From: Opitutales bacterium
GTDB taxonomy: Bacteria; Verrucomicrobiota; Verrucomicrobiia; Opitutales; JABSRG01
Direction: 5' to 3'
Assembly: GCA_049599475.1 (NCBI GenBank)
Contig: JBMYOQ010000002.1
Location: 32,001 to 96,000 of the forward strand
Length of the DNA: 64,000 bases
Position numbers and translations under genes: made by a program. The notes beneath the pieces were generated by a model. That model had not been told where the DNA came from. It did not search any database and worked only from the letters and a program-made list of their open reading frames with translations. Positions 2,554 to 24,686 of this stretch are shown piece after piece; positions within the stretch are counted from its first letter, which is position 1; each line of letters begins with the position of its first letter.

Positions 2554-3135
2554 ATGATTTCTATAGAAGAGCTTTCTCCATATAAATTTGTGATTTTCGA
2601 CTATGATTCAACAATTGCGAAAATACCCATTGATTGGCCAAAGGCTAGGTTAAGGTTCCGAGAATATTTGCAGGACCTAATTCCTGGCTTAAGCATACCA
2701 CAAAATTCTAGGGTCGATGAAATGGAATTATTGGCCTTGAAAGCCTTTCCTAATATGAAAGATAGTATATTTATGTTTCGATTAGAGCTGGAAACCCAAC
2801 TCGATGGTAAGCACGAAGGAATAAAAAATACAATCGAGCTCATTCGCGATCTTGCTGTTACTGAGACAAAGGAATTGTTGATCGTGAGCAATAATTTACG
2901 ACGGACGGTTGTGTCCGGGCTTTCACAGTTCTCGCTGAATGATTGTTTTAGCGCGGTTTTTGGAGTCGATGATGTCGGTTTTCCCAAACCGTCAACGGAT
3001 TCATTTTGTCTAATTGAACAAGTTTATGATGTATTGCCATCTGAATGCATTTTTATCGGCGACAATGATCGAACCGACGGCGGTTTCGCGGGTAAGATAG
3101 GTATGGGTTTTTATAATATTACGCATCTGAATTAA
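2554..3135 (+). CDS. HAD-superfamily hydrolase/phosphatase
   Basis: IFDYDST motif I, KP motif III, IGDNDRTD motif IV. Confidence 0.85.
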   Translation: MISIEELSPYKFVIFDYDSTIAKIPIDWPKARLRFREYLQDLIPGLSIPQNSRVDEMELLALKAFPNMKDSIFMFRLELETQLDGKHEGIKNTIELIRDLAVTETKELLIVSNNLRRTVVSGLSQFSLNDCFSAVFGVDDVGFPKPSTDSFCLIEQVYDVLPSECIFIGDNDRTDGGFAGKIGMGFYNITHLN

Positions 3136-3151
3136 TAGACGAAAGCATCTT

Positions 3152-4780: not shown

Positions 4781-4794
4781 GATTGGAGGATTCC

Positions 4795-5538: not shown

Positions 5539-5544
5539 TTTCTT

Positions 5545-7718: not shown

Positions 7719-7753
7719 TATCGTATTCCCAATAGTATCTAAAAATTATTTAT

Positions 7754-9900: not shown

Positions 9901-9902
9901 GC

Positions 9903-11063: not shown

Positions 11064-11979
11064 ATTTGTTCCAGATTTCTTGATACTTGGAGCTCAAAAA
11101 GCTGGGACAACAGCTTTATCGGCTTATTTAGAACAACATCCGGAAATTTTTATACCGAGGAACAAAGAGCCGAGTTTTTTTTCATTTAAAAGTAAGCACC
11201 CCGAATATTGCGGGCCGGAAGACTGGTTGGCAAACCGAGATTTTGTTGTTCACCAAGATGCCTACTCTCAATTATTTCATCCTCGGGGACCGCAGCAAAT
11301 AGCTGGTGAGGCTTCTGTGACCTACCTATATTTGGCAGATACAGTGCGAAATATTAAATACTTTATTCCTAAGGCAAAATTTATTGTATCTTTGAGGAAT
11401 CCTGCCAAGCGGGCCTTTTCGGCATATCAGCATTTAAGGCGCGACGGACGAGAAGTCATCGGTAATTTTTCTGATGCATTAGAGGCTGAGAGCGAAAGGA
11501 TAGGAAAGAATTGGGAAACACTTTGGCATTATGAATCCGTAGGTTACTACGGAAAGCAGATTGAGCGGTATTTGGATGTTTTCAGTCGTGATCAATTTTT
11601 GTTTTTGAAAAGCGAAGAGATCTTCAATGATCCGCTTGAATCTCTTGAGCGATGTTTTGAGTTTCTAGAGGTAGATACGTCTTTTGTTCCTGATACGTCA
11701 TTCGAAATGAATGTATCTGGTGCGCCGAAATCTCAGCGGCTCAACGACTTTTTCAATAAGCCGAATCCCATAAAGGAAACGTTTAAAAAATTTATTCCGA
11801 TAAAGTTCGGCCGCAGAATTAAGAACGCGATCCAAAAGAAAAATTTGGAAAAGTCGGAGTCTATTGGCGAGGATGATTACATGAACCTCATATCGAGATA
11901 CACGCGCGATATTCAATTAACTGAACAGCTCACAGGACTTAATTTATCGAATTGGTATTCTCAAGACTTTGACTCATGA
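11056..11979 (+). CDS. Sulfotransferase (family 1/3-like)
   Basis: GAQKAGTTAL, KEPSFF and LRNPAKRAFSAY. Confidence 0.9.
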   Translation: MCEFVPDFLILGAQKAGTTALSAYLEQHPEIFIPRNKEPSFFSFKSKHPEYCGPEDWLANRDFVVHQDAYSQLFHPRGPQQIAGEASVTYLYLADTVRNIKYFIPKAKFIVSLRNPAKRAFSAYQHLRRDGREVIGNFSDALEAESERIGKNWETLWHYESVGYYGKQIERYLDVFSRDQFLFLKSEEIFNDPLESLERCFEFLEVDTSFVPDTSFEMNVSGAPKSQRLNDFFNKPNPIKETFKKFIPIKFGRRIKNAIQKKNLEKSESIGEDDYMNLISRYTRDIQLTEQLTGLNLSNWYSQDFDS

Positions 11980-13184
11980 AAATATGCATTGCCAATGATT
12001 TCGCATGTCCGAATGGGGGTGCCTCTAAGGTTGCTATTACAGAAGCAATGGGTCTGAGCGAATCGGGCCATGATGTTTACTATTTCGCCGAATCGGGCCC
12101 GATAGATGAATCATTAATGAATTCAAATGTCTCAGTTGTCTGTGCCAATCGTCCTGATATACTTTCCAACCCGAGCAGGATTAATGCGTGTATTCGTGGC
12201 ATAGCGAATAAGCATGCTTATGATGATCTAAGTGACTTAATTAATCGATTCGATGAGGATTGGATTGTGCACGTGCACAGCTATAGCAAAGCTTTATCTC
12301 CCTATATTTTTAAAATAGGCGAGAAAACTAGTGTGCAGCTTTATCATACGCTTCATGATTATTTTATTGGTTGCCCCCAAGGAGGCTTTTTTGACAAACA
12401 AAAGGAGAGTGTTTGTAAGCTTAAAGGAGGAAGTTTTCAGTGCTTAAAGACTCACTGTGATGCTAGAAGTTTCGCACAGAAAGTATGGCGCTTTGGGAGA
12501 TGGGTTTATCAAGAAAATGTATTTTCTGAAATTGCCTGTTTGCCGCAGTTTATTGCCGTGTCTGAATATTTAAAATCGCGGCTGCTGAACTATCTACCTG
12601 CAGGTGCTAAAGTTGACGTTTTAGATAATCCTATTGATGCAGTTGCATCCTCGACAATAAATGTTGAGGAAAATCATGTATACGGGTTTGTTGGCCGACT
12701 TGTAGCTGAGAAGGGAATTTTTCATTACGCGGAAGCGATTCGGAAGTCGGGAAAACGGGGTGTTATCATTGGGGATGGTGACGAATCTGTAATTCAGCGA
12801 GTGAAAGAGATTTGTCCCAATTTAGAAATTAAAGGATGGTTGCAGGGAGATGCGTTGTTATCTGAGATCTCGAGCTTTCGCGCGCTTATTTTTCCGTCGA
12901 TCTATTATGAAGGACAACCCTTGACGCCGTTGGAGCATATGGCGCTTGGGATTCCTGTTGTGAGTTCTAACACTAACGCAGCTATCGATTATATGGAGGA
13001 TGGTGTAAATGGATTCGTATATGATGGAGATAGTGTTGATTCATTGGTGGCGGCTATAGAAAAAATTGAGGAACGGGGCGTGGCTGGCAAATTGGGGGCG
13101 AGGGCCAAGGCATGGTATAAAGGCAGGGATTGGTCCATAGATGGCCATATTCGAAAATTAGAGAGATTATATGGAATCCGATGA
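11976..13184 (+). CDS. Glycosyltransferase family 4
   Basis: TLHDY, VGRLVAEKG and EGQPLTPLEHMA. Confidence 0.9.
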   Translation: MKICIANDFACPNGGASKVAITEAMGLSESGHDVYYFAESGPIDESLMNSNVSVVCANRPDILSNPSRINACIRGIANKHAYDDLSDLINRFDEDWIVHVHSYSKALSPYIFKIGEKTSVQLYHTLHDYFIGCPQGGFFDKQKESVCKLKGGSFQCLKTHCDARSFAQKVWRFGRWVYQENVFSEIACLPQFIAVSEYLKSRLLNYLPAGAKVDVLDNPIDAVASSTINVEENHVYGFVGRLVAEKGIFHYAEAIRKSGKRGVIIGDGDESVIQRVKEICPNLEIKGWLQGDALLSEISSFRALIFPSIYYEGQPLTPLEHMALGIPVVSSNTNAAIDYMEDGVNGFVYDGDSVDSLVAAIEKIEERGVAGKLGARAKAWYKGRDWSIDGHIRKLERLYGIR

Positions 13185-14344
13185 AAGCGGCCGAAAACAA
13201 CAAAAGTGTTTTAATGATATCCGAGCCGGGGGTGGATGGTGTATTTCGCCACGTAGAGGGTTTGATTGATTATTTATTGTTGAATGAATGGCAGGTTCAT
13301 TTTGCGTATTCAAGCCAGCGCTCATCTGAACGACTTTTTTCGTTGGTGCGACGGGTATCCGATGCAGGAGGCATGACCGCTGATTTGAAAATTGGTAATG
13401 CGCCTGAAGTAAGAGATATTGGGGCCTGGTGGACATTGAGGCGGATGGTCAAAGAAGTTTCACCTTGTGTAATTCATGGCCATTCATCGAAGGGGGGAAC
13501 GCTGGCCCGAGTGATTTCGAATATTCCTGTGCTTTATACGCCTAATGCCTACTTTGGCATGGGGTTTCGTTCTGGTGCCAAGGCATTCCTGTTTAACTTT
13601 GTGGAGCGCCTTTTGTCATCCCGGGGAGTAAACATTCATGTTTCGCCTGAGGAGAGCGCTTTCGCGCAAACGGTATTAAAAATAAATTCTGAACGGATGG
13701 TTGAAATCCCTAATGCGGTAGACTTTGACGCATTTCGTCCAGCAAGTTCGGACATAGAAAAAAAGAACTTAAAGGCCGAGATGGGAATTGAAGCTGATGC
13801 CTGGGTATTGGGCTCTATCGGGCGTATTTCTTATCAAAAAAATCCAGAGCTATTGTATCGATCATTCGAAGCATTCTCGAATCGTCGAAATGATGCCAAG
13901 CTTTGCCTGTTACACGTGGGTGGAGGGAGTCGAGAAGATTTGGACGCTCTTTCGGCTATTGCGGAAAGGTTTAATAAAAACACCATTGTTGTTCGTCCCG
14001 TTTACCGTTCGGATCCTGAAGTGTTTTATAAGGTGATGGATGCTTTTTGCTTGAGTAGTCGTTATGAGGGGTTGCCGTTTACTGCGCTTGAAGCTCTTGC
14101 CTCAGATCTCCCGTTAGTTTTGACCGATGGCCCGGGACTTCGATCGTTTGCTGATTCGAAATACGGGTTCGAGCAAATTTATTATGCAGCATCAGACAAC
14201 ATAGAGATGTTTGCAGAGGCTATATTGACTTGCTTCAATCAGAGAGAACGTGGGACGAATCATCGTTCAGCCTCAAAAGATTTTTTTTCGATCAATAGTG
14301 TCTACGGCCGCATTGTAGATTTGTACACACAATCAAAGGTTTAG
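13181..14344 (+). CDS. Glycosyltransferase family 4
   Basis: HGHSSKGG, GRISYQKN and EGLPFTALEALA. Confidence 0.9.
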   Translation: MKAAENNKSVLMISEPGVDGVFRHVEGLIDYLLLNEWQVHFAYSSQRSSERLFSLVRRVSDAGGMTADLKIGNAPEVRDIGAWWTLRRMVKEVSPCVIHGHSSKGGTLARVISNIPVLYTPNAYFGMGFRSGAKAFLFNFVERLLSSRGVNIHVSPEESAFAQTVLKINSERMVEIPNAVDFDAFRPASSDIEKKNLKAEMGIEADAWVLGSIGRISYQKNPELLYRSFEAFSNRRNDAKLCLLHVGGGSREDLDALSAIAERFNKNTIVVRPVYRSDPEVFYKVMDAFCLSSRYEGLPFTALEALASDLPLVLTDGPGLRSFADSKYGFEQIYYAASDNIEMFAEAILTCFNQRERGTNHRSASKDFFSINSVYGRIVDLYTQSKV

Positions 14345-14416
14345 GTCTTTCCAGATTAGCCCTACCTTGATCCTTTTAAAAAGTGTAATTCGGGCTGCAT
14401 AAAAAGAGGATGAGGC

Positions 14417-15109
14417 TTATGCATGAGGTGTGATCTTGGCTTTTTTTGCCAAATCTTGCAGCAATGGGAGTGTCGATGGGTCTTTTAATAAATCCCGAAT
14501 GTCGCGGTTCGAAGATATACGGACGAAGAATTGTTCACGCTTTTGATTGATACCGAATTGAGTGAGCGTCTTTAAGAAATTTCCAGATATTTGGCCGTAG
14601 CGAGATTGTTCATTCGCGTAAATTTGATCGCCGACAATATGCCAAAATGTAACGCTTTGTGTCTGACCTTGTTTTTCAAATACACGGAATTCAGCGGGGT
14701 GAGCATCGGCCACGAAGACTTTATCCAGATCTATTTGATGTTCTCGTTTGATGGAGGTCCAACCGTTGCCGACCCAGCAGATATCTGGCGTGTGTTCGTG
14801 GGCTTGTTTGATTGGGGCGCTGCCGGGCTTCCAGTAGGCTACGTAGAGGATGAGTTGGGTATTGCCCCGGGTGTATATTCGGGAGACGTAGTCGTCGAAG
14901 TCTAGGATTTCGTCTACGCGGGCGAGCATCTCTTCGGTTTCGGCTAGGGGGAGGTCTTCCGCTTTCCAACCGGGCATCTCGGGGTTTATCAGTTCGGCAA
15001 GGGGTTGGGTGATCGATGGTGCCGGCTGCGGACGGACGGCGTCGAACACCTGCATGCCAATCGCAAAGAGTAAACCCAGCAGCGGAATCGAAAGGAGGAA
15101 TAATCGCAT
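14417..15109 (-). CDS. epsI: Exosortase-associated EpsI family protein
   Basis: N-terminal anchor, LYVAYW, HTPDICWVGNGW and FFVRISS. Confidence 0.8.
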   Translation of the reverse strand: MRLFLLSIPLLGLLFAIGMQVFDAVRPQPAPSITQPLAELINPEMPGWKAEDLPLAETEEMLARVDEILDFDDYVSRIYTRGNTQLILYVAYWKPGSAPIKQAHEHTPDICWVGNGWTSIKREHQIDLDKVFVADAHPAEFRVFEKQGQTQSVTFWHIVGDQIYANEQSRYGQISGNFLKTLTQFGINQKREQFFVRISSNRDIRDLLKDPSTLPLLQDLAKKAKITPHA

Positions 15110-15324
15110 AGTCTAGACTTACCACAAAAAACACAGAATGCACAGAAAAGTTGTTGAAGGGGATTTATCGCCGGCAGCGGGTTTATTTTTAACCACGAAT
15201 CACACTAATCACACGAATGGGGTTTTTTACTGCTTGCCTGCTTGAGCGTAGCTGGCGTGAGATCATCATTGATGACGGAGGTTTGCCGGAGACGGCGGTG
15301 CAATTATGAAATGAAGAGCGCGTT

Positions 15325-15543
15325 TCAGCGCTTGGGCTTTACCAGATTCCCTGTGTTTGGATCAATGTATGCGTCGCCACTTTTCTTTTTGCGTTCAACC
15401 GCTTCGTCGAAGAGCGCATTCAGATCCTCGTTGGCCTTGAGCTTTTGGTCGAAGCTGAGTTTTTGCCAATCGATTAAATTATTCAATTCAGCTCCGCTAA
15501 AGGTGCATCCTGACCAGTCTATGTCGGGGGCGGTCTCGCTCAT
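15325..15543 (-). CDS. Small hypothetical protein coupled to the upstream nucleotidyltransferase
   Basis: Overlaps the stop of the NTase (ATGA coupling); WQKLSFDQKL pattern. Confidence 0.65.
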   Translation of the reverse strand: MSETAPDIDWSGCTFSGAELNNLIDWQKLSFDQKLKANEDLNALFDEAVERKKKSGDAYIDPNTGNLVKPKR

Positions 15544-16049
15544 TTCTGGGTAGCTTGTTGGATTTTCTTCAAAAACTCAATGTCGATCTGATCTTTGAGG
15601 CGATTGGCCGATTGTTTCATTGAGATGAGCGTGGGTATGCTGGCGAAGCGGACGAGGGTGTTTTGGTCTCCGGTGTGCTCGCTTTTAGCGGATTCCCATT
15701 CGGTGTTAAAATCGAAAGGATGTTGGACGAAAACATCGAGCTTCGTGTCTGGATATGAGTCACTCCAGAATTGTAGAACTTGCATGTTCTTTTCGGTGTG
15801 CCAGATCTTGCGGAGATCGGCGTTTGAGAACTGTTTTGAGGTAATCGGGACGGTGGGCCTGTATCCTATTTGATTGAGTGCGCGGAAAGCTGATTCGATG
15901 TTATCTGGAACCAATTCCAATACGATGTCTGCATCGCGTGTGGCACGTAAGTAGCCGTGGGCTATAACCGCTAAGCCTCCGACTACTATGTAGCGAACAT
16001 TGTGAGCCTTGAGTGCATGAACGATTGTGTGAAACGAAGATGCTTTCAT
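15540..16049 (-). CDS. Pol-beta-superfamily nucleotidyltransferase (DUF6036-like)
   Basis: VVGGLAVIAHGYLRATRDAD and LISMK...R.KD..D. Confidence 0.85.
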   Translation of the reverse strand: MKASSFHTIVHALKAHNVRYIVVGGLAVIAHGYLRATRDADIVLELVPDNIESAFRALNQIGYRPTVPITSKQFSNADLRKIWHTEKNMQVLQFWSDSYPDTKLDVFVQHPFDFNTEWESAKSEHTGDQNTLVRFASIPTLISMKQSANRLKDQIDIEFLKKIQQATQK

Positions 16050-16056
16050 GGCTTGT

Positions 16057-16161
16057 TTGAGTTCATCGATGAGCCGCTTCGGGGCGCATGGCGTCGAAGT
16101 CTTGCATGCCGATGGCGAAGAGCAAACCTAGCACTGGAATCGATAAGAAAAAAAATCGCAT
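16057..16161 (-). pseudogene. Orphan 5' fragment of an epsI allele
   Basis: MRFFFLSIPVLGLLFAIGMQDFDAMRPEAAHR*; many differences from epsI are synonymous. Confidence 0.85.
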
Positions 16162-16213
16162 TCTCTAGGCTTACCACAAAAAACACAGAATGCACAGAAA
16201 AGTTGTTGGGCTC

Positions 16214-16612
16214 TCACGGAGTCACGGAGAGCACGGAGATGCGTTCTGGTTTTATCTTTGGGTCTTGGGGTCTTTGCGTGAGACTTGGCAAATTCTCTTG
16301 GTCACGAGATGGCACTAAAAGGCACAAAAATGAAGCTAGGGAGCGGATTTCTGAAACCACATAAAGGCACAGCACACCAAAAAACTCCGTGTCCTCCGTG
16401 CCTCCGTGAGGGCTTAAAATCGACGTTTAGATTTAAGAATTAAGAGCTTAGATTTTAGAGTTAATGGGATTTGGAGCTTGAGAATTGTTCCTTCAGCGCC
16501 CGGAGGGCACCCGCTTCAGTCACCCCTGCGGGGCACGCTCTGGCGCGCGCACCATCTACGCGCTGCTCGCGCTCCGTGGTTTTTGGGATTTGGAGTTTGG
16601 AATTTGGGATTT
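16214..16612. repeat. Cluster of 8-10 nt CAC-triplet repeats and 7-mer repeats, including an inverted pair
   Basis: ctcacggagtcacggagagcacggag (~16214) versus ctccgtgtcctccgtgcctccgtgag (~16385); tttgggatttggagtttggaatttgggattt (~16582). Confidence 0.8.
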
Positions 16613-16780
16613 ACGGGATGAAGGAGCGTTTTCTTTGAGCTTGCGTAGGGTGGCTAGATCGTTCGCTAGTTGCGTCATTTGATCGATACGTTCGAACGGG
16701 CGAAGCGAGAGATTGTGCATCCAGAGAGAGGCATCGGGCTTATCGGTCGCTGTGAGTTTTGGTGGGTCCTTTGATTTCAT
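16556..16780 (-). CDS. Small hypothetical protein coupled to the upstream nucleotidyltransferase
   Basis: ATGA overlap; D.SL..HNLSL.P.ERI pattern; the C-terminus reads through the 7-mer repeats. Confidence 0.6.
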   Translation of the reverse strand: MKSKDPPKLTATDKPDASLWMHNLSLRPFERIDQMTQLANDLATLRKLKENAPSSRKSQIPNSKSQKPRSASSA

Positions 16781-17250
16781 GACTGGCCGAGAATCTTGAC
16801 GTTTTCAAGATCATGCGGTCGCCCCATCGCTTCCTTTGCTTGAATCAAGGTAGGTAGATCGAGTGTTAGGAGGATAGGGGATTCTTTTTCATCACCGAGC
16901 GGAATTTGGATGGTGTGGGGCCTGGCATCTTTGTAGGAGCCCACAGCCTTGACGCTGCCTAGGCAATCCTGCTGTCCCCAATCCGTGAGCAAAGAGATGT
17001 TTTTCCATGTGCGGTCGCAATCAGAAGCCTCGAATGCGCATGGTGGGCGAGCCATACGGTGTTTGGGTTGTAGTTTCTTCAGGCTCTGCCAGAGTTTGCG
17101 AATGTTTCGGGGATTCATATCGCAAAGGATATCTATATCTTGAGTCAGTAGTGAGCTGCCGTGGATGGCTCCAGCCATACCACACACCAAAATGAAGTCT
17201 ACTTGGCCGTTGATCAACTGGATGAGTAAATCGCGGAAGTGTAGAATCAT
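16777..17250 (-). CDS. Nucleotidyltransferase family protein (possibly decaying)
   Basis: LVCGMAGAIHGSSLLTQDIDI (the usual GG appears as CG) and LIQAKEAMGRPHD. Confidence 0.8.
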   Translation of the reverse strand: MILHFRDLLIQLINGQVDFILVCGMAGAIHGSSLLTQDIDILCDMNPRNIRKLWQSLKKLQPKHRMARPPCAFEASDCDRTWKNISLLTDWGQQDCLGSVKAVGSYKDARPHTIQIPLGDEKESPILLTLDLPTLIQAKEAMGRPHDLENVKILGQS

Positions 17251-17387
17251 AAACGTGTTGAAAGGGGTGAGGAAAGCATGAGCTTTTTTGTAAGATTAAA
17301 TAGCCTAGCTGAAGGTTAAAATGACTACTCGGGGCGAAGTAGTGAACCGCGAATCGTGGGATATGGGTATTTGAGGTCGGACTCTCT

Positions 17388-17564
17388 ATTATACGCCATA
17401 TCTTTGAGTATTTTTTGAGCTGAGCGCTCGTTGATTTCACGATGCCGTGGCACCGGCTGCCTCGCTCTTGACTGGGGATTGTGATAGATGTCGTATTTTG
17501 CTCAATGTCTCAGCAGTGTGCGTCCTATTTTTACAAGCTGCTGAATCAGGTCTCTGCGTTTCAT
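17388..17564 (-). pseudogene. hicA: HicA toxin pseudogene
   Basis: Manual translation MKRRDLIQQLVKIGRTLLRH*AKYDIYHNPQSRARQPVPRHREINERSAQKILKD; in-frame TGA at 17502-17504; 3' end approximate. Confidence 0.85.
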
Positions 17565-17757
17565 GCTACCTGGAGCTCATCGACCGTTTTGGTTCCTGGT
17601 ATCAGTTCGTAGATAAATGTTGCGTGAAGATCTTTCAGGTGGAGTTGAAGGTCTTATAAGCGGAACCTTAGATCCAATGGTCGGGATGGCTGTTGAGAAA
17701 ACCAAGGAAGGTGCCGTCCGACTCTTTCCAATATGTATATTTGATCTTAATCCTCAT
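17561..17757 (-). pseudogene. hicB: HicB-like antitoxin pseudogene
   Basis: MRIKIKYTYWKESDGTFLGFLNSHPDHWI*G, then a frameshift to ...HLKDLHATFIYELIPGTKTVDELQVA*; overlaps the hicA start (ATGA). Confidence 0.8.
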
Positions 17758-17814
17758 TAAACTCCGGTTTGAGATCGTTTAAATCAAGCGAGTAAGGGAG
17801 GCGCGTGAGGCTCT

Positions 17815-17885
17815 GAAATTAGAAATTTGGTTATTGGCTGTTGGTTGTTGAGATTTGGAGCTTGGGAGTTGGGATTTGGAATTTT
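17815..17885. repeat. Degenerate 7-mer tandem repeat
   Basis: gaaattagaaatttggttattggctgttggttgttgagatttggagcttgggagttgggatttggaattt. Confidence 0.75.
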
Positions 17886-17951
17886 GTTCGAGCGTAGCGG
17901 CAAGACCGGGCGCTCAGTGAACCGGACCATTATGAACCAGGACAAAGTCGA

Positions 17952-18374
17952 TCAGGGGGTCTTGCATCGGATGTCTTTGAAGCAAGCAAAGTCGCTTGGG
18001 TTGTAGGTTACGAGGGTTTCGATTCCGTTTTGTAGCATTACAGCTACGAGTTGAGCGTCATGGATGCGTTTGCCGCTGAGAGTGTGTTGTTTGACTAACT
18101 TGAGCAGGTTTTGAGTCGTTTGTATGTTTTCCTCGAGTTGAAAAAGGAAGCTTCGAAAACGATCAATGTTTTGAACTGCAGACTCTGGCGGCAAACCCAG
18201 GCCATTTCGCTCTATGGGGCGCGTAGCGACAACTGCGTACTCGCGAAACACTTGGCCGCTGGTGTACGCCGTTTGGGTGGATCCTATAATATCTTCAAGA
18301 AAAGCTTGGCAGTCCTTCTGGTGTGCGCGGCTCCTATCCGTAGCCTCTAAAAGAATGTTGGTATCAATAAACAC
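17952..18374 (-). CDS. vapC: PIN-domain toxin (VapC/FitB-like)
   Basis: FIDTNILL, E.A.V.TRP, IHDAQLVA and TYNPSDF. Confidence 0.9.
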   Translation of the reverse strand: MFIDTNILLEATDRSRAHQKDCQAFLEDIIGSTQTAYTSGQVFREYAVVATRPIERNGLGLPPESAVQNIDRFRSFLFQLEENIQTTQNLLKLVKQHTLSGKRIHDAQLVAVMLQNGIETLVTYNPSDFACFKDIRCKTP

Positions 18375-18375
18375 G

Positions 18376-18612
18376 TTATCGCCCTTCTGAGGAGTCTTCG
18401 TAAATGGCCGCGCGATTCCAAGAACCCTCCTTGATGCCAGACTCGGCGTAGCAGAGTTCTAGTGAACGTTTGCTTGATGGGAGGGGCAGTTTAGAAGCCG
18501 CTTCAAGGAGATGGTGAATCTCGTGTTGAAGAGACCTGTGATGGCTTTTGGCGCGAGTCTTAAGGGCTTCGAGAGTATGCTCAGGAACGTTGCGAATATG
18601 TATTGATTTCAT
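18376..18612 (-). CDS. Ribbon-helix-helix antitoxin (FitA/VapB-like)
   Basis: MKSIHIRNVPE..LEALK.RA..HHRSLQ.EI; immediately upstream of the PIN gene. Confidence 0.88.
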   Translation of the reverse strand: MKSIHIRNVPEHTLEALKTRAKSHHRSLQHEIHHLLEAASKLPLPSSKRSLELCYAESGIKEGSWNRAAIYEDSSEGR

Positions 18613-18615
18613 ACT

Positions 18616-18632
18616 GGTATCAAAATGATACC
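18616..18632. promoter_or_regulatory. Palindromic operator candidate for the RHH antitoxin
   Basis: GGTATCA-aaa-TGATACC, 3 nt upstream of the antitoxin ATG. Confidence 0.6.
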
Positions 18633-18875
18633 GAAGCGTGCGGTCAAATCTTAACCACGAATTGCTGGGAGGCAGGGGTATTTTTATAAATTTCTTAGTC
18701 TGCTTGGGATGGTGTTTGTGCTTTTTGCTGAGTCACTGAATCAGGTTTGAGAGCTGGAATCTTCCGCTTCTTTAAATAATGAGTCAGTCCAGATTGCACT
18801 AACTTGAGGGTGTCTAACGAGTGATTCGGGCTTGTTTTCCATTTTGTGCGATTCACGTATTCGGCCGCGTTGGAG

Positions 18876-18975
18876 CTCACGCGAAGGCGCGAAGACGCGA
18901 AGCTAAACACAGTAATTCACAAGTTCCAGAACCCAAGCTTCGGGTCTTTGCGCCTTGAGCGCTAGTGGGCGTGAG
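18876..18975. repeat. Imperfect inverted repeat built from GCGAAG-containing units
   Basis: ctcacgcgaaggcgcgaagacgcgaag ... ctttgcgccttgagcgctagtgggcgtgag; a partial copy cttgagcgtagctggcgtgag lies at 15241-15261. Confidence 0.7.
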
Positions 18976-19482
18976 TAATTTATTTACCAGCATACATAGA
19001 TCATCACCTGTTTCTTGAGCGTGCTCGGCGGGTTGACTGAAGCTGGGTGCCGTCGGGTGCTGAAGGAACAGAGATGAAGTTTTTGGATGCCTGTAGGTCT
19101 GTGCGGGGGAGACGTTTCCGCTGGAATCGTTCCTTAGGCGATTTTTCAAGTGTGAAAGTGGAGGGAGGTCAGGTAGGAGGTGTGCGTTACTTGGGGCGTG
19201 AGCCTTGTGAAACGGCTTGGTCGGGTTCTGTTACCTTAGTCCGCAGCCGGGGTATTCTAGTTGGCGCTCGTTTATTGGACCCAAATCACGGCGCTAGAAT
19301 GGCCTATTAATGCGAACTCAATCTCGAAAACGGGACTTGATTCAGGCTGCCTACATAGAGGAGGTTGAAGCTCGGTTTTATCAAAATTTAGCTGAAACTT
19401 TTTCGTTTCGAGTTGAAATTCTGTACGGGGATGTGTGCCTTGGTGCTGTAATTGCTCTGACTGCTTTACTGCTTTCTCTACT

Positions 19483-21027
19483 ATGAAACGTCTCTTTTTC
19501 CTTTTTTCATTGCTTTGCTATTTGTCGCCATTGGGCCTGTTGGCCGCAGGGGGTGGCGATTCCCATGAGAGTTCGGGCTTTCCGATTGCCTTGGAGGAAT
19601 ATCATGATGAGGACGTCGATTCTGTCCTTGGTAAGCTGCAGTATCGTATCGAGCAGGATCCTTTTAACTTGGTTGCGACCATTATCTTCTTCATGGCGAT
19701 CCTCCATACGTTCATGGCTGGGAAGTTCATGGATATGGCTCACAAGTTCCATCATGATCATGAGCATAAGATTAAGGAGAAGGGCCTGACTGCTGAGGCG
19801 AAGCCGTATAAGAATGCGAAAGATGACGTCAGCTTTAAGAGTGAACTCTTTCACTACCTGGGCGAGGTGGAAGCCATTTTTGGTATTTGGGTGGTGCCAC
19901 TGCTCGTTGCTGTTGCAGTGTTTCACGGTTGGGGTGGGGTCACCGATTATCTCCATTATTCCCCTGACTCGGTCAACTACACCGAGCCTATGTTCGTGGT
20001 TATCATCATGGCGATCGCGTCTACGCGGCCTGTTATGTATTTTTCTGAGCAGAGTCTAAAGAAGGTCGCGGATATCGGTAAGGGGAGTCCGGCGGCATGG
20101 TGGTTGAGCATTCTCACGATCGCACCGATTCTCGGATCCTTCATAACGGAGCCAGCGGCGATGACGATTGCGGCGATTCTTCTTGGTAAAACTTTCTATG
20201 ATTTACAGCCGAGTGCCAAATTCTCCTATGCGACTCTGGGACTTCTTTTCGTCAATATCTCTGTCGGGGGCACTTTGACTCACTTTGCGGCGCCGCCGGT
20301 TTTGATGGTCGCGGGCACTTGGGGATGGGACATGCCGTTCATGTTCTCAAACTTCGGCTGGAAGGCTGTTTTGGGTATTTTAATCGCGAATGCGGCCTAT
20401 TTCACGGTATTTGCCAAGGATTTTAAGGCCCTGAACGAGAAGGCTCAGAGCCTGAAGGCGCAGTCTGCTGACGAGTTGAAAGAAGAGCCGGTTCCATTTT
20501 GGATCACTCTGGTACACCTCTTTTTCATTGGTTGGACGGTTTTCAATCTCCACTACCCGCCGCTGTTCATTGGAGGTTTCCTCTTTTTCTTGGCATTTAC
20601 CAACATGACTGCGACTCACCAGAGCAAGGTTTCTCTGAAAACTCCGATGCTCGTGGGATTCTTCCTCGCGGGTCTCGTCACGCACGGCGGTTTGCAAAAG
20701 TGGTGGATCGCCCCCGTCTTAGGGTCTTTATCCGAGATTCCACTGTTCGCTGGTTCGACGATTCTGACGGCGTTTAATGACAATGCCGCGATTACTTACC
20801 TTGCATCATTGGTTCCTTCTTTTGCTACTGCAAAGGATCTTCAGTATGCTGTTGTCGCGGGTGCGGTAACTGGCGGGGGATTGACTGTCATCGCAAACGC
20901 ACCCAATCCCGCAGGTCAGTCCATTCTGAACAAATATTTCGTAGGAGGTGTTTCCCCAGCGAAATTAGCCATGGGCTCCATCTTTCCAACTCTGGTGATG
21001 GCGGCGTGCTTCATGTTTATTCGGTAA
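19483..21027 (+). CDS. Putative Na+/H+ antiporter (DUF1504 family)
   Basis: LGEVEAIFGIW, GSFITEPAAMT, LTAFNDNAA and GGGLTVIANAPNPAG. Confidence 0.85.
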   Translation: MKRLFFLFSLLCYLSPLGLLAAGGGDSHESSGFPIALEEYHDEDVDSVLGKLQYRIEQDPFNLVATIIFFMAILHTFMAGKFMDMAHKFHHDHEHKIKEKGLTAEAKPYKNAKDDVSFKSELFHYLGEVEAIFGIWVVPLLVAVAVFHGWGGVTDYLHYSPDSVNYTEPMFVVIIMAIASTRPVMYFSEQSLKKVADIGKGSPAAWWLSILTIAPILGSFITEPAAMTIAAILLGKTFYDLQPSAKFSYATLGLLFVNISVGGTLTHFAAPPVLMVAGTWGWDMPFMFSNFGWKAVLGILIANAAYFTVFAKDFKALNEKAQSLKAQSADELKEEPVPFWITLVHLFFIGWTVFNLHYPPLFIGGFLFFLAFTNMTATHQSKVSLKTPMLVGFFLAGLVTHGGLQKWWIAPVLGSLSEIPLFAGSTILTAFNDNAAITYLASLVPSFATAKDLQYAVVAGAVTGGGLTVIANAPNPAGQSILNKYFVGGVSPAKLAMGSIFPTLVMAACFMFIR

Positions 21028-21064
21028 AGACCACCGCACATAAACCTTTTAATCTGACACAGGC

Positions 21065-21343
21065 CTAGTCGATCGATCCGACTAGGTCTGCTATTTTACG
21101 GTGACTTTCGATTGGATTCGATAGCTGGCGATCAACGAGGATTTCGTAGGTGTTCTGGCGCCCGACGCGTTTGCGGCGCAGATATCCCCCCACTTCAAGG
21201 TCCGCTACAATACGCTGCACGGCGCGTTCGGTGATGCCGATCGTCGCCGCGACTTCGCGTAGGGGCTGATTGGGTTTGTGCGCGATACAGGTCAAGACCT
21301 GTGCGTGGTTTGTAAAAAACGACCAGTGGTTTCCCATTGTCAT
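21065..21343 (-). CDS. Winged helix-turn-helix transcriptional regulator
   Basis: WSFFTNHA...LREVA..IGITERAVQRIVADL...GRQNTY. Confidence 0.85.
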   Translation of the reverse strand: MTMGNHWSFFTNHAQVLTCIAHKPNQPLREVAATIGITERAVQRIVADLEVGGYLRRKRVGRQNTYEILVDRQLSNPIESHRKIADLVGSID

Positions 21344-21452
21344 AGCTTAATAAGGCAATTTTATCGGGAAACGCATTGCATGAAACAAAAAACATGAAAA
21401 AATTGTCGGTTTAGCTTGCGTTCGCGAAAATGCGTCATCTATTTCGTGTATT

Positions 21453-22358
21453 ATGAAACGCTACAGGAGCATCGTATCTCCCCTGTCTCTTACCGAGGCA
21501 GACAAATCCATCGTTCAGTGGACGTCCAAAGTGACGCGTCTCGCTGAATCTCAGAAAGTAATTTTCGTCCACCCTATGGACATCGGTGAAATCCCCGAAG
21601 AGGCGAAAGCCAAGTATCCATGGCTGGCGGCTCCGATCGGCGAAAAGGCGATCGAAGAGATGAAGAAGACCGTCGATGCGCTTTGGGATGGTCATCCGGG
21701 CGTCGAGATAGAATTCAAGGCACTGGATAAACCGAGTCAGGCGCTCGCCATCCTAGAGGTCGTTCTGGAAGCCTCTGCCGATCTCGTTTTGGTATGTAGA
21801 GGTGCCTTTGGTAATGATTTGGCAATACGATTAGCGCGCAAGGCTCCATGCTCTGTGATGGTATTGCCTAAGGGATCCGAGGCGCAGTTGAGGAATATCA
21901 CGGTCCCTGTGGACTTCTCTGTTCACTCTAGTCGCGCAATGGATGTGGCTACCGCGTTTGCGTCAGCTGAAGGACTCGAGAAGATTACGAGTGTTCATGT
22001 TTACAGCACCGGACGCATGTCACACCGAGCTACAATTCCTGCGGAAGAGCTCACTCAGCTGACACTTGATCACGTGAAAACGAAGCATGATGAGTTCTTA
22101 GATTCTGAGGATTTGAAAGGTCTTGAGGTTACTCGGGAACACGTGTGCAGTATGATTAAGCCTCAGGCTATTGTCAGCGAAGCTAAGCGCAATGGTTCTG
22201 ACATTATAGTGCTTGGATGTCGAGGTAAGGACACGATTGCAGCTCTCTTATTGGGCAGTGTTACCGAAGAGCTTATGCGGATTTCGGACGTGCCGGTGAT
22301 TGCAGCGAAAGAAAAGGGCACAGGTCTCAGCTTAGTGAAAGCCCTTTTAGGAAATTAA
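21453..22358 (+). CDS. Universal stress protein (tandem USP domains)
   Basis: ARKAPCSV, VPVDFS and IVLGCRG...LLGSVTE. Confidence 0.88.
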   Translation: MKRYRSIVSPLSLTEADKSIVQWTSKVTRLAESQKVIFVHPMDIGEIPEEAKAKYPWLAAPIGEKAIEEMKKTVDALWDGHPGVEIEFKALDKPSQALAILEVVLEASADLVLVCRGAFGNDLAIRLARKAPCSVMVLPKGSEAQLRNITVPVDFSVHSSRAMDVATAFASAEGLEKITSVHVYSTGRMSHRATIPAEELTQLTLDHVKTKHDEFLDSEDLKGLEVTREHVCSMIKPQAIVSEAKRNGSDIIVLGCRGKDTIAALLLGSVTEELMRISDVPVIAAKEKGTGLSLVKALLGN

Positions 22359-22373
22359 AGGAAAGCCTCTCCA

Positions 22374-24686
22374 ATGGTTCTGCTAGCTACACTTTGTATA
22401 TTGCTTGCTGCTGTACCCTGGGCATTTTGCGTCGGGAAGCTGAACAACCGGATGCGCGGACTGCTGTTAATGGCGCCTGCGTTTGTGGTTTTTCTTCTTT
22501 TAATCGGCCCACTCGCCTCGGAGTATTTAAAGGTTGGGGAAGTCGCCTACCAGTTTGAGTGGGTGCCTCAACTCGATTTGAGCTTTGCGCTTCGGCTACA
22601 CGGAGTGGGATTGCTTCTCGCTCTGTTAGTCACAGGGATTGGATCATTCATCATGCTCTATGCTAGCGGGTATATGGACGGGTATCCGGGGGCGAATAAG
22701 TTGTATGGGTATCTCTATGCATTCATGCTCGCGATGTTGGGCTTGGCTCTCTCGGACCACCTCCTCCTCACCTTTATCTTTTGGGAGCTCACGAGTATTA
22801 CGTCCTATCTTTTAATAGGGTTCAATCATGAGAAATCTGAGTCTCGCCGTAATGCATTACAGGCGCTCTTAGTCACAGGCCTGGGCGGGATGGCTTTGAT
22901 GGCAGGCTTCATATTGCTCGCCCAAGTGTATGACACCTGGATCCTTTCGGAAATCCTATCTTCTTCGATACAAGTAACTGAGCACGCTTGGTATCCCGCG
23001 ATTTTGATTTTGGTCGCACTAGGTGCCTTTACTAAATCCGCTCAATTCCCGTTCCACTTCTGGTTGCCCAACGCGATGGCGGCGCCGACGCCCGTGAGTG
23101 CTTATTTACACTCCGCTACGATGGTGAAGGCTGGAGTCTATTTGCTAGCTCTCATGCTTCCGATTCTAGGTGGCACGCAAATGTGGACTCTGATGCTCTG
23201 TATTGCTGGAGGAATTACGCTAATCCTCGGTGGTTGGTTTGGGCTTCAGCAGAATGATCTCAAAAAACTTTTGGCGGGAACGACTTTGGCAGTTTTGGGC
23301 TTGTTGACGTTTTTGCTCGGTCTGGGGACTGAGAAGGCTGCGTTGGCGGCAATATTATTCTTATTAGGACACGCCCTGTATAAGGCGACTTTGTTCATGG
23401 TCGCGGGTTCAATTGATCATGAGGCGGGTACGCGTGACATACGGATCTTGGGCTCTCTCAGAGGGCTAATGCCTGTTACGTGTGCGGCAGCGCTCATCGC
23501 AGCCGTCTCCAAAATGGGCCTCCCTCCGTTATTCGGGTTTATAGGCAAGGAGTACACTTACAAAGCGACATTGGCGGGGGGGGCGGCATTCTGGATGTCA
23601 GCTCTTCTGATTGTTGGAAACGCGATTTTATTCGCTCTAGCATTTAAGGCAGGTGTGCTTCCTTTTTGGAAGAAGGGGGACGTCTCAGAACTTCCTAAAA
23701 AGCCGCACGAAGCCCCTCTCTCGATGTATGCCGGACCGGTTGTGTTATCTCTGTTGGGTCTAGTCTTTGGACTGTTTCCAGCACTGGTTAAGCCTCTAGT
23801 TCAGGCGTGCATGACATTGATGGCGCCTGCTGCTGATCCTATAAGCATCAAGCTGTGGGCTGGGTTTAACCTTCCCCTGCTACTGAGTGGAGTCACCGTC
23901 GCTCTGGGCGCGGTGATCGTTGTGCTTGGGAAGCGGATACAACTATTCGCTGAGAAAGTGAAAATGCGAACCTTCGATGAATACTACGATGTGTTCTTAA
24001 AAGGAGTTGTAGGCTTGGCCAATTGGCAGACCCGTACGCTTCAATCTGGAAATTTGAGGCACTATTTGATCATTATTCTTTGCGGATCGTTTGCCTTGGT
24101 TGCTTACAAGCTCAGCAATTCAGGCCAATTTGGTTTGGGCGATCAGGTGCAGTCGTTCTCTTGGCCAGCAGTGTTCATTATCCTTACAATGTTTCCAGCT
24201 ATCCTCTTTGCGATCACTACGCAAAATAGGATTACAGCACTCATCGCACTGGGGGTCATTGGCTTTGGTATCGCGTTAATTTTTGCAATTTACAGTGCGC
24301 CAGACCTAGCGATCACTCAAATCTTGGTGGAAACTCTCACCGTTGCCCTGTTCGCTTGGGTGGTTTCGAAACTACCCAAACTGCGTATGATTTCGGACAA
24401 GAGTAAATTATTCTGGGATGCGCTCATCAGTATTTCGGCCGGAGCTTTGGTGACTATCATGGTCCTTAAATCTAAGGCCGTAGATCTGGGAACGCGGATC
24501 TCTGATCAGCTGACAGCCTGGAGTTACCCGGAAGCACATGGCAGTAATGTGGTGAATGTAATACTCGTCGATTTTAGAGCCTTAGATACTCTAGGTGAAG
24601 TCGTGGTTCTCTTTATCGCGGCTGTAGGGGTCTGGGCCTTACTCTCAAACAGCAAAAAAATCACTGAGAAGGAGGTGTCTCAATGA
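22374..24686 (+). CDS. mrpA: Mrp/Mnh Na+/H+ antiporter subunit A
   Basis: FWELTSITSYLLIG, TKSAQFPFHFWLP.AM.APTPVSAYLHSATMVKAG and DFRALDTLGE. Confidence 0.95.
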   Translation: MVLLATLCILLAAVPWAFCVGKLNNRMRGLLLMAPAFVVFLLLIGPLASEYLKVGEVAYQFEWVPQLDLSFALRLHGVGLLLALLVTGIGSFIMLYASGYMDGYPGANKLYGYLYAFMLAMLGLALSDHLLLTFIFWELTSITSYLLIGFNHEKSESRRNALQALLVTGLGGMALMAGFILLAQVYDTWILSEILSSSIQVTEHAWYPAILILVALGAFTKSAQFPFHFWLPNAMAAPTPVSAYLHSATMVKAGVYLLALMLPILGGTQMWTLMLCIAGGITLILGGWFGLQQNDLKKLLAGTTLAVLGLLTFLLGLGTEKAALAAILFLLGHALYKATLFMVAGSIDHEAGTRDIRILGSLRGLMPVTCAAALIAAVSKMGLPPLFGFIGKEYTYKATLAGGAAFWMSALLIVGNAILFALAFKAGVLPFWKKGDVSELPKKPHEAPLSMYAGPVVLSLLGLVFGLFPALVKPLVQACMTLMAPAADPISIKLWAGFNLPLLLSGVTVALGAVIVVLGKRIQLFAEKVKMRTFDEYYDVFLKGVVGLANWQTRTLQSGNLRHYLIIILCGSFALVAYKLSNSGQFGLGDQVQSFSWPAVFIILTMFPAILFAITTQNRITALIALGVIGFGIALIFAIYSAPDLAITQILVETLTVALFAWVVSKLPKLRMISDKSKLFWDALISISAGALVTIMVLKSKAVDLGTRISDQLTAWSYPEAHGSNVVNVILVDFRALDTLGEVVVLFIAAVGVWALLSNSKKITEKEVSQ

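Follow-up and report, generated by a model that had tools for sequence, protein, structure and literature searches.

In a marine Verrucomicrobiota genome (4.68 Mb; G000), four gene pairs resembling toxin-antitoxin (TA) modules lie in the same orientation on the minus strand, at positions 15110-19434 of the window, the 64,000-nt stretch of DNA analysed here. This row of co-oriented two-gene modules is free of integrase genes and attC sites, and we hold with moderate confidence that it is a TA islet, an insertion hot spot of long standing that borders a polysaccharide gene cluster, and not an integron-type array. The mechanism proposed for the islet is read from static genomes, and the toxin and addiction roles of its genes are predicted.

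Gene pairs of the row

The row is packed into one divergent intergenic gap before a single conserved gene, epsI, and neighbours a polysaccharide locus (2554-14344) with Wzy, GT4 and sulfotransferase genes. An initial annotation had described four same-direction TA-like cassettes upstream of epsI in different states of decay. Gene calls, Pfam matches and frame translations bear out this description, with RHH-PIN, a broken hicB-hicA and two nucleotidyltransferase (NTase) plus small-ORF pairs following one another, all oriented toward epsI. The Pfam scan covered the seven cassette ORFs and one spacer ORF. The features, all on the minus strand, are:

14417..15109, minus: epsI-like gene (DUF3485), the row's downstream anchor (PF11984, E 3.9e-14)
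15110..15156, minus: epsI leader with micro-repeat TTCTGTGCATTCTGTGTTTTTTGTGG, part of direct repeat D1 copy 1 (15021-15156)
15157..15324, minus: spacer S0, with ATTCGTG-type micro-repeats (15180-15218) and dispersed 25-35-nt modules (15233-15266, 15274-15304)
15325..15543, minus: small ORF 1, 72 aa, predicted to partner NTase-1 and conserved beside the NTase in G001, G003 and L033
15540..16049, minus: NTase-1, DUF6036-like nucleotidyltransferase, 169 aa (DUF6036 23.5 bits, cut-off 23.6)
16039..16208, minus: second-epsI relic, D1 copy 2, abutting the NTase-1 start (32 open codons and, at 16162-16208, a copy of the leader)
16209..16555, minus: spacer S1, with CTCCGTG arms (16210-16238 and 16385-16413), further micro-repeats and a 55-nt element
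16556..16780, minus: small ORF 2, 74 aa, its C-terminal tail encoded by micro-repeat 16577-16612
16777..17250, minus: NTase-2, 157 aa, distantly related to NTase-1 (BLASTP, 23% identity, E 4e-10)
about 17330..17760, minus: hicB-hicA pseudogenes (frame translations; alignment to hicB/hicA of G003)
17828..17891, minus: AAATCCCAA-type micro-repeat at the PIN/hicB junction, a direct copy of 16577-16612 (D2, 86% over 36 nt)
17952..18374, minus: PIN-domain VapC-like toxin gene, 140 aa (PF01850, E 4.2e-8; TIGR00028)
18376..18612, minus: FitA-like RHH antitoxin gene, 78 aa (PF22513, E 7.5e-13; orthologue in G003)
18613..18670, minus: promoter/operator-like RHH-PIN leader, with a TATCAT..TGATACC palindrome and ATTCGTGGTTAA upstream, kept in G000 and G003
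18671..19434, minus: distal spacer, reaching a divergent Na+/H+ antiporter gene (repeat searches)

The epsI-like gene stays under the cut-offs of the EpsI NCBIfam models; its orthologues are 80% identical in G001, from the same genus, and 69% in G003, from another genus. Within the region, promoter-like matches occur in the RHH-PIN leader only. The alignment of RHH-PIN and then hicBA between G000 and G003 shows that this part of the row is older than the split of the two genera. The PIN gene, one of just two PIN matches in G000, has its orthologue within the G003 array. In G000, hicB carries one stop and one frameshift and hicA an in-frame TGA at codon 21, while G003 has an intact hicB (63 aa) and a hicA broken at another codon. 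Because the stop differs between the genomes, the alignments show that hicA was inactivated independently in the two lineages.

The NTase-1 family search gave 306 proteins at E<=0.001, NTase-1 itself included, with G24 and D41 invariant and G25 and D39 almost invariant. The L034 counterpart of the pair is a single 227-aa ORF (a fusion or a frameshift), and a profile search with small ORF 1 gave 480 cluster representatives at E<=1e-3. The two proteins are predicted to bind each other: their complex model reached 0.81, against 0.00 for the best control. Solved complexes attained this mark in 116 of 157 cases and mismatched pairs in 2 of 215. Runs agreed in at least 96% of contacts with a partner pLDDT of at least 72, and the small partner is placed on the motif-bearing loop of NTase-1 (residues 26-38). 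NTase-2 has 25 homologues apart from itself, none of them more than 49% identical; for small ORF 2 we found no family and no detectable relationship to small ORF 1. Both NTase pairs are conserved modules present in RNA libraries, with contigs at 15844-16201 (NTase-1), 16671-16877 (small ORF 2) and 17028-17397 (NTase-2), and library coverage of the region is restricted to these cassettes (4 of 30 bins per run).

TA modules built around an NTase are known, among them AbiEii/AbiEi, MenT/MenA and MNT/HEPN. The pairs described here share with them a minimal NTase fold with a G-G...D-x-D motif, a two-gene layout and a 4-nt overlap, but their partner is a downstream-encoded protein of 55-100 aa from no named family, and no AbiEi, MenA or HEPN partner accompanies these NTases. 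We found no mention of DUF6036 in the literature searched.

The same slot in relatives

The comparison drew on a small sample, seven genomes of the family and about ten usable metagenome loci. G001 carries one unrelated VapBC pair in the gap flanked by the same antiporter gene and by epsI, and G003 has at least eight co-oriented modules before epsI. In a third relative, G002, the slot is empty, with a 75-nt gap before epsI, and in G006 the corresponding gap is 1.3 kb long and repeat-rich, without recognisable genes. Cassette content therefore varies among relatives, as the initial annotation had supposed, and whole gene pairs likewise occupy loci that change from genome to genome: the NTase-1 pair of G001 is located after rfbA, with homology spanning only its ATG to the small-ORF stop, and G000 and G003 have this pair at different places in their arrays. 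G003 has a second TA array elsewhere in its genome and two epsI paralogues, and its PIN matches number 30, compared with 26 in G006 and 2 in G000. The cassette nearest epsI is a 4HB gene in both G003 and L044.

TA loci cluster in islands. The row resembles clustered type II TA loci and defence islands (VapBC, HicAB) in its small modules of two genes each, whose frames overlap or abut, its family matches (PF22513, PF01850, hic homologues), its patchiness among relatives, with different loci occupied in close relatives, and its independent pseudogenisation. It is unlike them in that all modules share one orientation within one gap before one conserved gene, in that the same slot is used in two genera, and in that the leader of the downstream gene recurs between its cassettes.

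Micro-repeats and the epsI leader

The row contains the densest 6-12-nt tandem micro-repeats of the genome. TRF (period 6-12) found ten merged arrays within 4 kb at the row, with nine and five at the runners-up and a maximum of four in a shuffled genome. The 2,244 nt of spacer hold nine arrays, as against 0.98 expected from the genome's intergenic density (Poisson P about 1e-6), a density about nine times the intergenic average, and the earlier description of repeat-rich spacers at most junctions is thereby confirmed. The same annotation had taken the repeats for recombination or RNA-processing signals of a cassette system; their distribution does not support a dedicated recombination role. 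Genome-wide there are 220 intergenic arrays, compared with 60 in the shuffled genome, and 58 of 209 tested arrays have an inverted counterpart no more than 300 nt away, mainly next to ordinary genes; most of the row's micro-repeat families are dispersed through the genome, where they are frequently hairpin arms adjoining ordinary genes. The distal spacer includes a CTTCGCG x3 element (18870-18907) accompanied by a module at 18934-18983; about 20 further copies are present in the genome, several at contig ends. The CTCCGTG arms of S1 could form a long hairpin (fold -70.2 kcal/mol, z -3.3), and the 55-nt element of S1 (16486-16540) has an inverted copy at 19017-19070. Spacer sequence is not conserved between genera at the orthologous PIN/hicB junction of G000 and G003, the flanks of the NTase-1 cassette have no sequence in common across three copies, and other TA arrays in relatives (L039, L011, L012) have few or no micro-repeats. 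On these alignments, the genes and the RHH-PIN operator are conserved and the spacers are not.

The association of repeats with cassettes does stand for the epsI leader: in four lineages, sequence immediately upstream of epsI reappears upstream of a nearby cassette. The 47-nt leader is present twice in G000. In G003, TTCATAATTCACAATT is confined to the epsI array within 3.4 Mb, with six forward matches at three junctions and none in reverse. An exact 19-nt repeat brackets the 4HB gene immediately before epsI in L044, and the direct repeats of L050 are 132 and 44 nt long; the epsI locus of G001 has no comparable leader repeat. At rfbB-rfbA, one repeat arm is present at the empty G000 site and two direct copies surround a Phd-PIN pair at the filled G001 site. 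The recurrence of the epsI leader upstream of cassettes is an unexplained regularity. One instance carries less weight than the others. D1 has just two copies in the genome, both at the row, which are identical at 44 of 47 leader positions and 67 of 89 coding positions, and 15 of the 22 coding mismatches fall at third codon positions. This bias marks copy 2 as the relic of a once-functional second epsI rather than a fresh target duplication, which weakens that case of leader reuse.

Origin of the row

Insertion of new pairs is probably anchored at the leader. Self-contained addiction-type gene pairs would enter the slot rarely, would be hard to lose while the toxin is functional, and would decay once it breaks. 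Pairs would probably be brought in by recombination that depends on homology or microhomology and takes place at the short tandem repeat making up the downstream gene's leader; this would account for the leader copies bracketing the cassette nearest epsI. The remaining micro-repeats would be the lineage's ordinary intergenic hairpin repeats, building up in dispensable DNA, and tolerance of such junk DNA is a putative cause of their roughly ninefold density. The co-orientation of about ten cassette types counts against this explanation, being stronger than a passive model would give unless antisense transcription into epsI is selected against.

A less likely explanation, though one to be taken seriously, is that an ordinary TA cluster occupies a permissive gap and that its micro-repeats and leader copies are irrelevant to insertion, being relics of tandem duplications, a lost second epsI or generic intergenic repeats. 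The third-position bias of the epsI relic, which shows a formerly functional gene, agrees with this explanation, as do the two epsI paralogues of G003, the genome-wide occurrence of most repeat families next to ordinary genes, the repeat-poor TA arrays of relatives and the repeat-rich gap of G006 without recognisable genes. It fits poorly with the exact 19-nt duplication around the 4HB gene of L044, the array-specific repeat at three junctions in G003, the one arm at the empty and two at the filled rfbB-rfbA site, and the single orientation of all cassette types.

We consider it improbable that a dedicated system operates here, in which a putative recombinase would take up and rearrange cassettes by acting on the micro-repeats and the repeats might also be RNA-processing signals. 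The genome's highest repeat density, repeats at most junctions in both G000 and G003, direct repeats bracketing cassettes or groups of them (D1 and D2 in G000; also in G003, L044 and L050) and the differing placement of the NTase-1 pair in the two arrays are consistent with such a system. So is the presence of both 4HB genes of G000 (contigs C43 and C10) within operons, between inverted micro-repeat arms. However, the ORFs scanned within the row and next to it in G000, G001 and G003 included no recombinase gene, the repeats differ between genomes and at the orthologous PIN/hicB junction, cassette copies lack common ends, and duplicated lengths ranging from 19 to over 130 nt poorly fit a site-specific enzyme.

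The initial annotation had reported neither an integrase nor attC sites at the row, which is correct, and had proposed an integron-like but mechanistically distinct cassette system, although the row lacks the features of the genome's real integron. That integron lies on other contigs, with an IntI (contig C120; TIGR02249, 349 bits) and about ten 120-nt attC sites, and all six tyrosine-recombinase matches in the genome are likewise on other contigs. An attC model built from the genome's own sites (R1) gave seven true sites 115.8-131.5 bits. Its scores did not exceed 8 bits in the window (E 0.31 for the best match at the row) or 9.4 bits in the epsI arrays of the relatives, yet it detected 8 sites elsewhere in G001 and 16 in G003, which rules against an integron array. 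Co-oriented, TA-rich small cassettes of variable content without an adjacent integrase do recall a CALIN, and CALINs are common, half of them in IntI-encoding genomes, according to PMC4889954. An eroded array, placed by IntI at a secondary site with attC decayed past recognition, is nevertheless very improbable despite the genome's IntI and attC arrays and G003 PIN genes within about 250 nt of attC-model matches, given the scores of the structure-aware model, the absence of nhmmer attC matches at E<=10 on the row's contig, repeats that differ per junction, variable duplication lengths and the conserved operator-like leader that RHH-PIN has of its own.

The repeats of the TA islet themselves have partial counterparts. 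REP/BIME elements are short dispersed modules in intergenic mosaics, many of them hairpin-forming. The row's repeats are similar in these respects and have copies at contig ends, but their arms consist of 7-9-mers repeated three or four times in tandem. In G000, G001, G003, G006 and L044, the epsI leaders have the form of tandem 7-9-nt units, with ACTGA repeats in G006. TAACTGA heptamers are described, in PMC4679880, as direct repeats upstream of start codons in Beggiatoaceae, Cyanobacteria and Bacteroidetes; on that description, both are intergenic tandems of two to six 7-9-nt units, in many cases ending close ahead of a start codon, by a few nucleotides, but here there are many unit sequences, many inverted hairpin-capable pairs and small accessory genes bracketed by them. 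The 4HB genes on C43 and C10, as PF05635/TIGR02436 ORFs within the stem of flanking inverted repeats, resemble the Coxiella 23S rRNA intervening sequence with its S23p/four-helix-bundle ORF, as PMC4990558 presents it, except that the elements here lie between protein-coding genes and that the epsI loci have direct instead of inverted flanking repeats.

Gene content of the row upstream of epsI

The window (G000:C2:32001-96000) lies in a marine, Opitutales-like genome of the Verrucomicrobiota (G000; 4.68 Mb in 146 contigs). Upstream of epsI, four TA-like pairs of genes form a row on the minus strand.

Features of the row (window coordinates)
15109-19435, minus: limits of the row, from the epsI start (15109) to a divergent Na+/H+ antiporter gene (19435)
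18376-18612, minus: FitA-like RHH gene (PF22513, E 7.5e-13)
17952-18374, minus: PIN gene (PF01850, E 4.2e-8)
about 17760-17330, minus: hicB and hicA remnants, with clear homology to the pair in the family relative G003
16777-17250, minus: NTase-2, a distant relative of NTase-1
16556-16780, minus: small ORF 2 (74 aa), pairs with NTase-2
15540-16049, minus: NTase-1, DUF6036-like
15325-15543, minus: small ORF 1 (72 aa), pairs with NTase-1

The RHH and PIN genes are 1 nt apart and follow the VapBC order, a small DNA-binding antitoxin and then PIN, with the PIN product scoring 53.8 bits against TIGR00028, under the 73.6-bit cut-off. Both hic frames are broken in G000: hicB carries a frameshift as well as a stop, and hicA has a TGA at codon 21. 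The epsI product matches DUF3485 above cut-off, reaches 33.4 against a cut-off of 42.8 for TIGR02914, and falls far below cut-off for the type B and V EpsI models. Exosortase has three matches in the genome, all on contigs other than that of the row; on the plus strand, 2554-14344 is a polysaccharide locus whose genes include Wzy, GT4, and sulfotransferase. Nothing matched in an Rfam scan of 14300-19600 (E<=1), PADLOC matched 0/6 cassette proteins of the window, and tblastn of seven proteins against their own genome found no paralogues except an epsI relic. Promoter and terminator pattern scans of the row gave no excess over shuffles, with two promoter-like sites 5' of RHH and one terminator-like site 3' of small ORF 1. 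Contigs from two RNA libraries of a single study match the window identically at the two NTase cassettes alone (16671-16877 and 17028-17397 in run X3, 15844-16004 and 16011-16201 in run X4; 4/30 bins in each), and one contig stops inside the duplicated epsI leader, although transcription, starts, and ends are beyond proof from such contigs.

The two NTases share 23% identity (E 4e-10). NTase-1 scores 23.5 bits against PF19502 (DUF6036; cut-off 23.6) and its G003 orthologue 26.3, precomputed annotation places PF19502 in many NTase-1 homologues, and NTase-2 has no Pfam match. Across 32 aligned homologues of NTase-1, the minimal NTase motif G-[GS]...D-x-[DE] is present, with G24 and D41 fully conserved and G25 and D39 almost so. 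NTase-1 has 306 homologous proteins at E<=0.001 (itself counted) in Verrucomicrobiota, Burkholderiales, and other groups, at 51-69% identity among the matches listed, while a genome-collection scan with NTase-1 yielded 5 loci only; for NTase-2 the count of homologues is 25 without itself, none above 49% identity. The small partner follows the NTase in an Opitutales MAG, and the two read as a single 227-aa ORF in L034, a gammaproteobacterial MAG, through either a fusion or a frameshift. A word-index homologue search with small ORF 1 returned only itself, and a partner profile built from four sequences identified 480 cluster representatives (E<=1e-3), 65 of them at E<=1e-10, with lengths mostly of 55-100 aa. 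Small ORF 2 showed no relation to the family of small ORF 1 (BLASTP E 1.9; hhalign probability 0.1).

A model of the NTase-1/small ORF 1 complex scored 0.81, with 0.00 for the best of 3 controls. The mark that it reached is also reached by 116/157 solved complexes and 2/215 mismatched pairs, counts that are only rough here because our own alignments were used as input. At least 96% of contacts agree between runs, with a partner pLDDT of at least 72. The modeling supports binding of the small ORF 1 product by NTase-1 and places the partner's conserved helix on NTase-1 residues 26-38, the loop with the G-G...D-x-D motif; the partner may be an inhibitor or a substrate. Neither NTase matches PF08843 or any PADLOC AbiEii model (E<=0.01), and the arrangement differs from AbiE type IV TA systems in that the partner lies downstream and belongs to no family, rather than being an upstream AbiEi. 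The literature collection searched has no paper mentioning DUF6036; as a module, this NTase and its small partner are widespread and make a ready candidate toxin-antidote pair.

Integron machinery and the epsI slot in relatives

Integrons and CALINs resemble the row in having co-oriented cassettes with content that varies between relatives, and CALINs (PMC4889954) are the closest literature for this type of array. The row differs from both in that no attC sites were found in it, and it shares with CALINs the lack of an adjacent integrase. The sole IntI of G000 lies away from it, on contig C120 (TIGR02249, 349 bits, cut-off 265), and is a 472-aa protein with an N-terminal extension. In the C120 integron (L024, 5079-8854), IntI is followed by cassettes on the opposite strand with 120-nt attC sites between them. 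Further attC-like copies occur on C77 (L025, about 5796-8675) and C5 (L026, 2709-2843), C39 and C55 carry weak copies, and the arrays on contigs other than C120 stop at contig breaks. Pfam matched 0/2 scanned integron cassette ORFs of G000.

A lineage-specific attC covariance model (R1), built from 7 G000 sites, scores 115.8-131.5 bits on those sites and works across genera, detecting 8 attC sites in G001, a genome of the same genus, and 16 in G003. With filters off, its best score in window positions 13000-21000 was 8 bits (E 0.31), and nhmmer found no attC match on the row's contig, C2. R1 found no attC in the epsI arrays of G001 and G003 or in the rfb cassettes of G001 either (best 9.4 bits). 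The row is without integron machinery and is not an integron array, and G000's own integron, as an internal control, excludes the obvious mechanism for it.

We compared the slot before epsI in seven genomes of the family and in metagenome loci with enough flank. Cassettes share the orientation of epsI in G000 (4/4), G001 (1/1), and G003 (8/8), and their content differs. In G001, the antiporter gene and epsI are still neighbors, with one VapB/VapC-like pair between them that is unrelated to that of G000. In G003, everything from the contig start to epsI is co-oriented: DUF433 and DUF5615 genes, a pair orthologous to NTase-1 and small ORF 1, an AbiEii-like gene accompanied by a 99-aa ORF, an inactivated MNT-HepT pair, RHH-PIN orthologues, hicB with a broken hicA, a fragment of a four-helix-bundle (4HB) gene, and an intact 4HB gene. 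Only 75 nt separate epsI from a divergent DegT gene in G002, and 1.3 kb of GC-rich repeats with no recognisable genes precedes epsI in G006 (both family relatives). Among the metagenome loci, the gene immediately before epsI is a 4HB gene in L044 and a divergent DegT gene in L041; an RHH-like ORF accompanied by further small co-oriented ORFs occurs in L050, and a Wzy-like gene lies upstream of epsI in both L045 and L046. An independent metagenome run (X2) contains pieces identical to the window, with no alternative joints within the parts covered, and is therefore uninformative on the turnover of cassettes. Within window 19435-24686 of G000, the PF07399 antiporter gene lies upstream of an mrp-type antiporter operon, but in G003 (L031, G003:C63) it is directly downstream of that operon, so the neighborhood of the row was rearranged between genera.

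In the alignments, conservation is of the genes, not of the spacers. The G000/G003 alignment of RHH-PIN-hicBA begins at a TATCAT..TGATACC palindrome, ~55 nt 5' of the RHH start, spans the genes, and breaks down in the PIN/hicB spacer, where the micro-repeats differ between the genomes. The hicA stop differs between the two genomes, and hicA therefore died twice. Three copies of the NTase-1 pair, located next to epsI in G000, second in the array in G003, and 12 nt after rfbA in G001, are homologous only from the NTase ATG to the small-ORF stop. TA clustering extends beyond the epsI slot: a second G003 array (L039, G003:C79:19000-27000), beside ahpC and prfB and with only two micro-repeat calls, holds two HepT/MNT pairs, PIN, DUF5615, and DUF6364 genes, mostly on one strand. 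PIN matches number 30 in G003, 26 in G006, and 2 each in G000 and G001.

The initial annotation is confirmed in what it observed. Its four co-oriented cassettes with repeat-rich spacers before epsI are upheld by the gene calls, the uniform orientation, and a micro-repeat count that is the genome maximum; and its failure to recognise attC sites or an integrase agrees with the R1 and IntI searches. Cassette content is not invariant among relatives and differs among G000, G001, G003, and G002. The label integron-like holds for the layout but not for the machinery. The best-supported reading of these sequences makes the row an old TA islet that flanks epsI on its 5' side, probably shaped by gain, rearrangement, and decay of self-contained pairs. 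If it is a TA islet only, the row would be a clean natural case of addiction modules piling up and dying at one slot across genera.

Recurrence of the epsI leader

In G000, a 136-nt direct repeat (D1), comprising the 47-nt epsI leader and ~30 codons, lies on both sides of the NTase-1 pair. Its copies are identical at 44/47 positions in the leader and 67/89 in the coding part (Fisher P 0.0097). Third codon positions account for 15 of the 22 coding mismatches, and the upstream copy is therefore a relic of a second, once-functional epsI gene; a fresh target duplication was rejected on the same bias. The two epsI paralogues in G003 are in line with this relic. The second of these, at 9-596 of L014 (G003:C52), is followed by IS66-family genes, and near identity of the two over their first ~85 residues, followed by divergence, suggests gene conversion of the 5' half. 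A match in spacing between D1 (1052 nt) and a repeat pair in G006 (1053 nt) is a coincidence, the G006 segment consisting of GC-rich repeats only.

Leader repeats recur at other loci. The G003 16-mer TTCATAATTCACAATT has six forward matches at <=2 mismatches (two exact) and none in reverse (controls, 1 and 1), all confined within 3.4 Mb to the epsI array, where they precede MNT, 4HB, and epsI. L044 has an exact 19-nt repeat just 5' of the 4HB start region and again just 5' of the epsI start, and the small-ORF region of L050 has direct repeats of 132 and 44 nt, 575-577 nt apart. Between rfbB and rfbA, the empty site in G000 has one repeat arm, and in the filled site of G001 two direct copies of about 35-40 nt flank a Phd-PIN pair. 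No such recurrence was seen at the epsI locus of G001. In both G000 and G003 the leader repeat is restricted to the array, and four or five cases suggest leader-anchored insertion. The duplicated lengths, from 19 to >130 nt, are more in keeping with homology- or microhomology-based events than with a site-specific enzyme.

This recurrence keeps alive the idea of a cassette accumulation system in the initial annotation. A short tandem repeat in the leader of epsI and some other genes could be a docking site for small cassettes, although we consider this unlikely. Small self-contained cassettes (TA pairs, 4HB genes) would enter at the leader repeat, the leader would be duplicated on entry so that newcomer and downstream gene each retain one copy, and repeated entries would produce a co-oriented row. 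Docking would amount to integron-like gene capture without IntI or attC, parallel to a true integron in one genome, and thus to a second cassette-capture route that does not depend on integrons. A role would then also fall to the tandem 7-9-nt repeats with which the intergenic DNA of these Verrucomicrobiota is filled and which resemble unexplained heptamer repeats of other phyla.

Micro-repeats of the spacers

The repeats in the row are real and their density is exceptional. Low-threshold TRF calls of period 6-12, merged, gave 939 arrays genome-wide against 492 in a locally shuffled genome, and the row is the genome maximum, with 10 arrays within 4 kb (runners-up, 9 and 5; shuffled maximum, 4). 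The 504 kb of intergenic DNA, from a crude gene call, hold 220 arrays against 60 in the shuffle, and the 2,244 nt of row spacers hold 9 against 0.98 expected. BLAST against the genome resolves the spacers into mosaics whose 25-50-nt modules recur many times in the rest of G000, several copies lying at contig ends; some modules are present in other genera too. An inverted partner lies within 300 nt of 58/209 intergenic arrays (1 in the reversed-sequence control), typically between ordinary genes or directly 3' of them, making these arrays arms of long hairpins built from 3-4 tandem 7-9-mers. The row has a single inverted pair, with CTCCGTG arms at 16210-16238 and 16385-16413 (fold -70 kcal/mol, z -3.3), and its remaining arrays are single or in direct orientation.

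The best-supported view is that most micro-repeat families of the row are the generic intergenic repeats of this lineage. Like REP/BIME or heptamer (TAACTGA-like) repeats, they are short units, genome-wide, mostly intergenic, and above chance; TAACTGA heptamer repeats upstream of start codons (PMC4679880) are the closest literature. The epsI leader of G006 (L015 3861-3900) has ACTGA-containing repeats right before the ATG, likened to the TAACTGA heptamer repeats of Beggiatoaceae and Cyanobacteria. Inverted micro-repeat pairs as general brackets of passenger genes were rejected: the 7 pairs with a spacing of 300-1600 nt (controls, 2 and 0) enclose genes of any kind (116-445 aa), as neighboring intergenic hairpins would also do.

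Several individual elements were seen. The second densest micro-repeat spot (G000:C115:1-2700) has tandem-like ~190-nt units, each with ACGCGAAG x3, and adjoins a 306-aa ORF and a large dehydrogenase-like gene, with no TA genes seen. A dispersed conserved element of ~95 nt or longer occurs at 13/22 TTCGTGGTTAA sites of G000 (including C21:20299, C27:35895, C58:23387, and C86:15087); with a triple CATTCGTG-type repeat as its core and GGTTAACAGAAAGCTGGTCATTGATTTAAC at its end, it resembles a MITE or small RNA gene. A dispersed ~140-nt element (G000:C40:33957, C7:73931, C6:63760, C12:82737) consists of an internal inverted repeat ATCTCCGAGCGG...CCGCTCGGAGAT, a 31-nt core ATTGCTTCGCCATCTCCGGCAAGCCTCCGTC, and a short hairpin, and its core stands alone at window 15274-15304. 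The two genome copies of a 55-nt element are both in the row, in opposite orientation (16486-16540 and 19017-19070). The final 15-20 codons of small ORF 2 (…SRKSQIPNSKSQKPRS…) are formed by a AAATCCCAA-type micro-repeat (16577-16612); either the repeat invaded the 3' end of the gene or the true stop is earlier. Both 4HB genes of G000, of the 23S rRNA IVS protein family (C43:26030-26344 and C10:3242-3541), are flanked by inverted micro-repeat arms within runs of co-oriented housekeeping-size genes, and look like intervening-sequence-type stem-loops, with the ORF in the loop, between protein genes.
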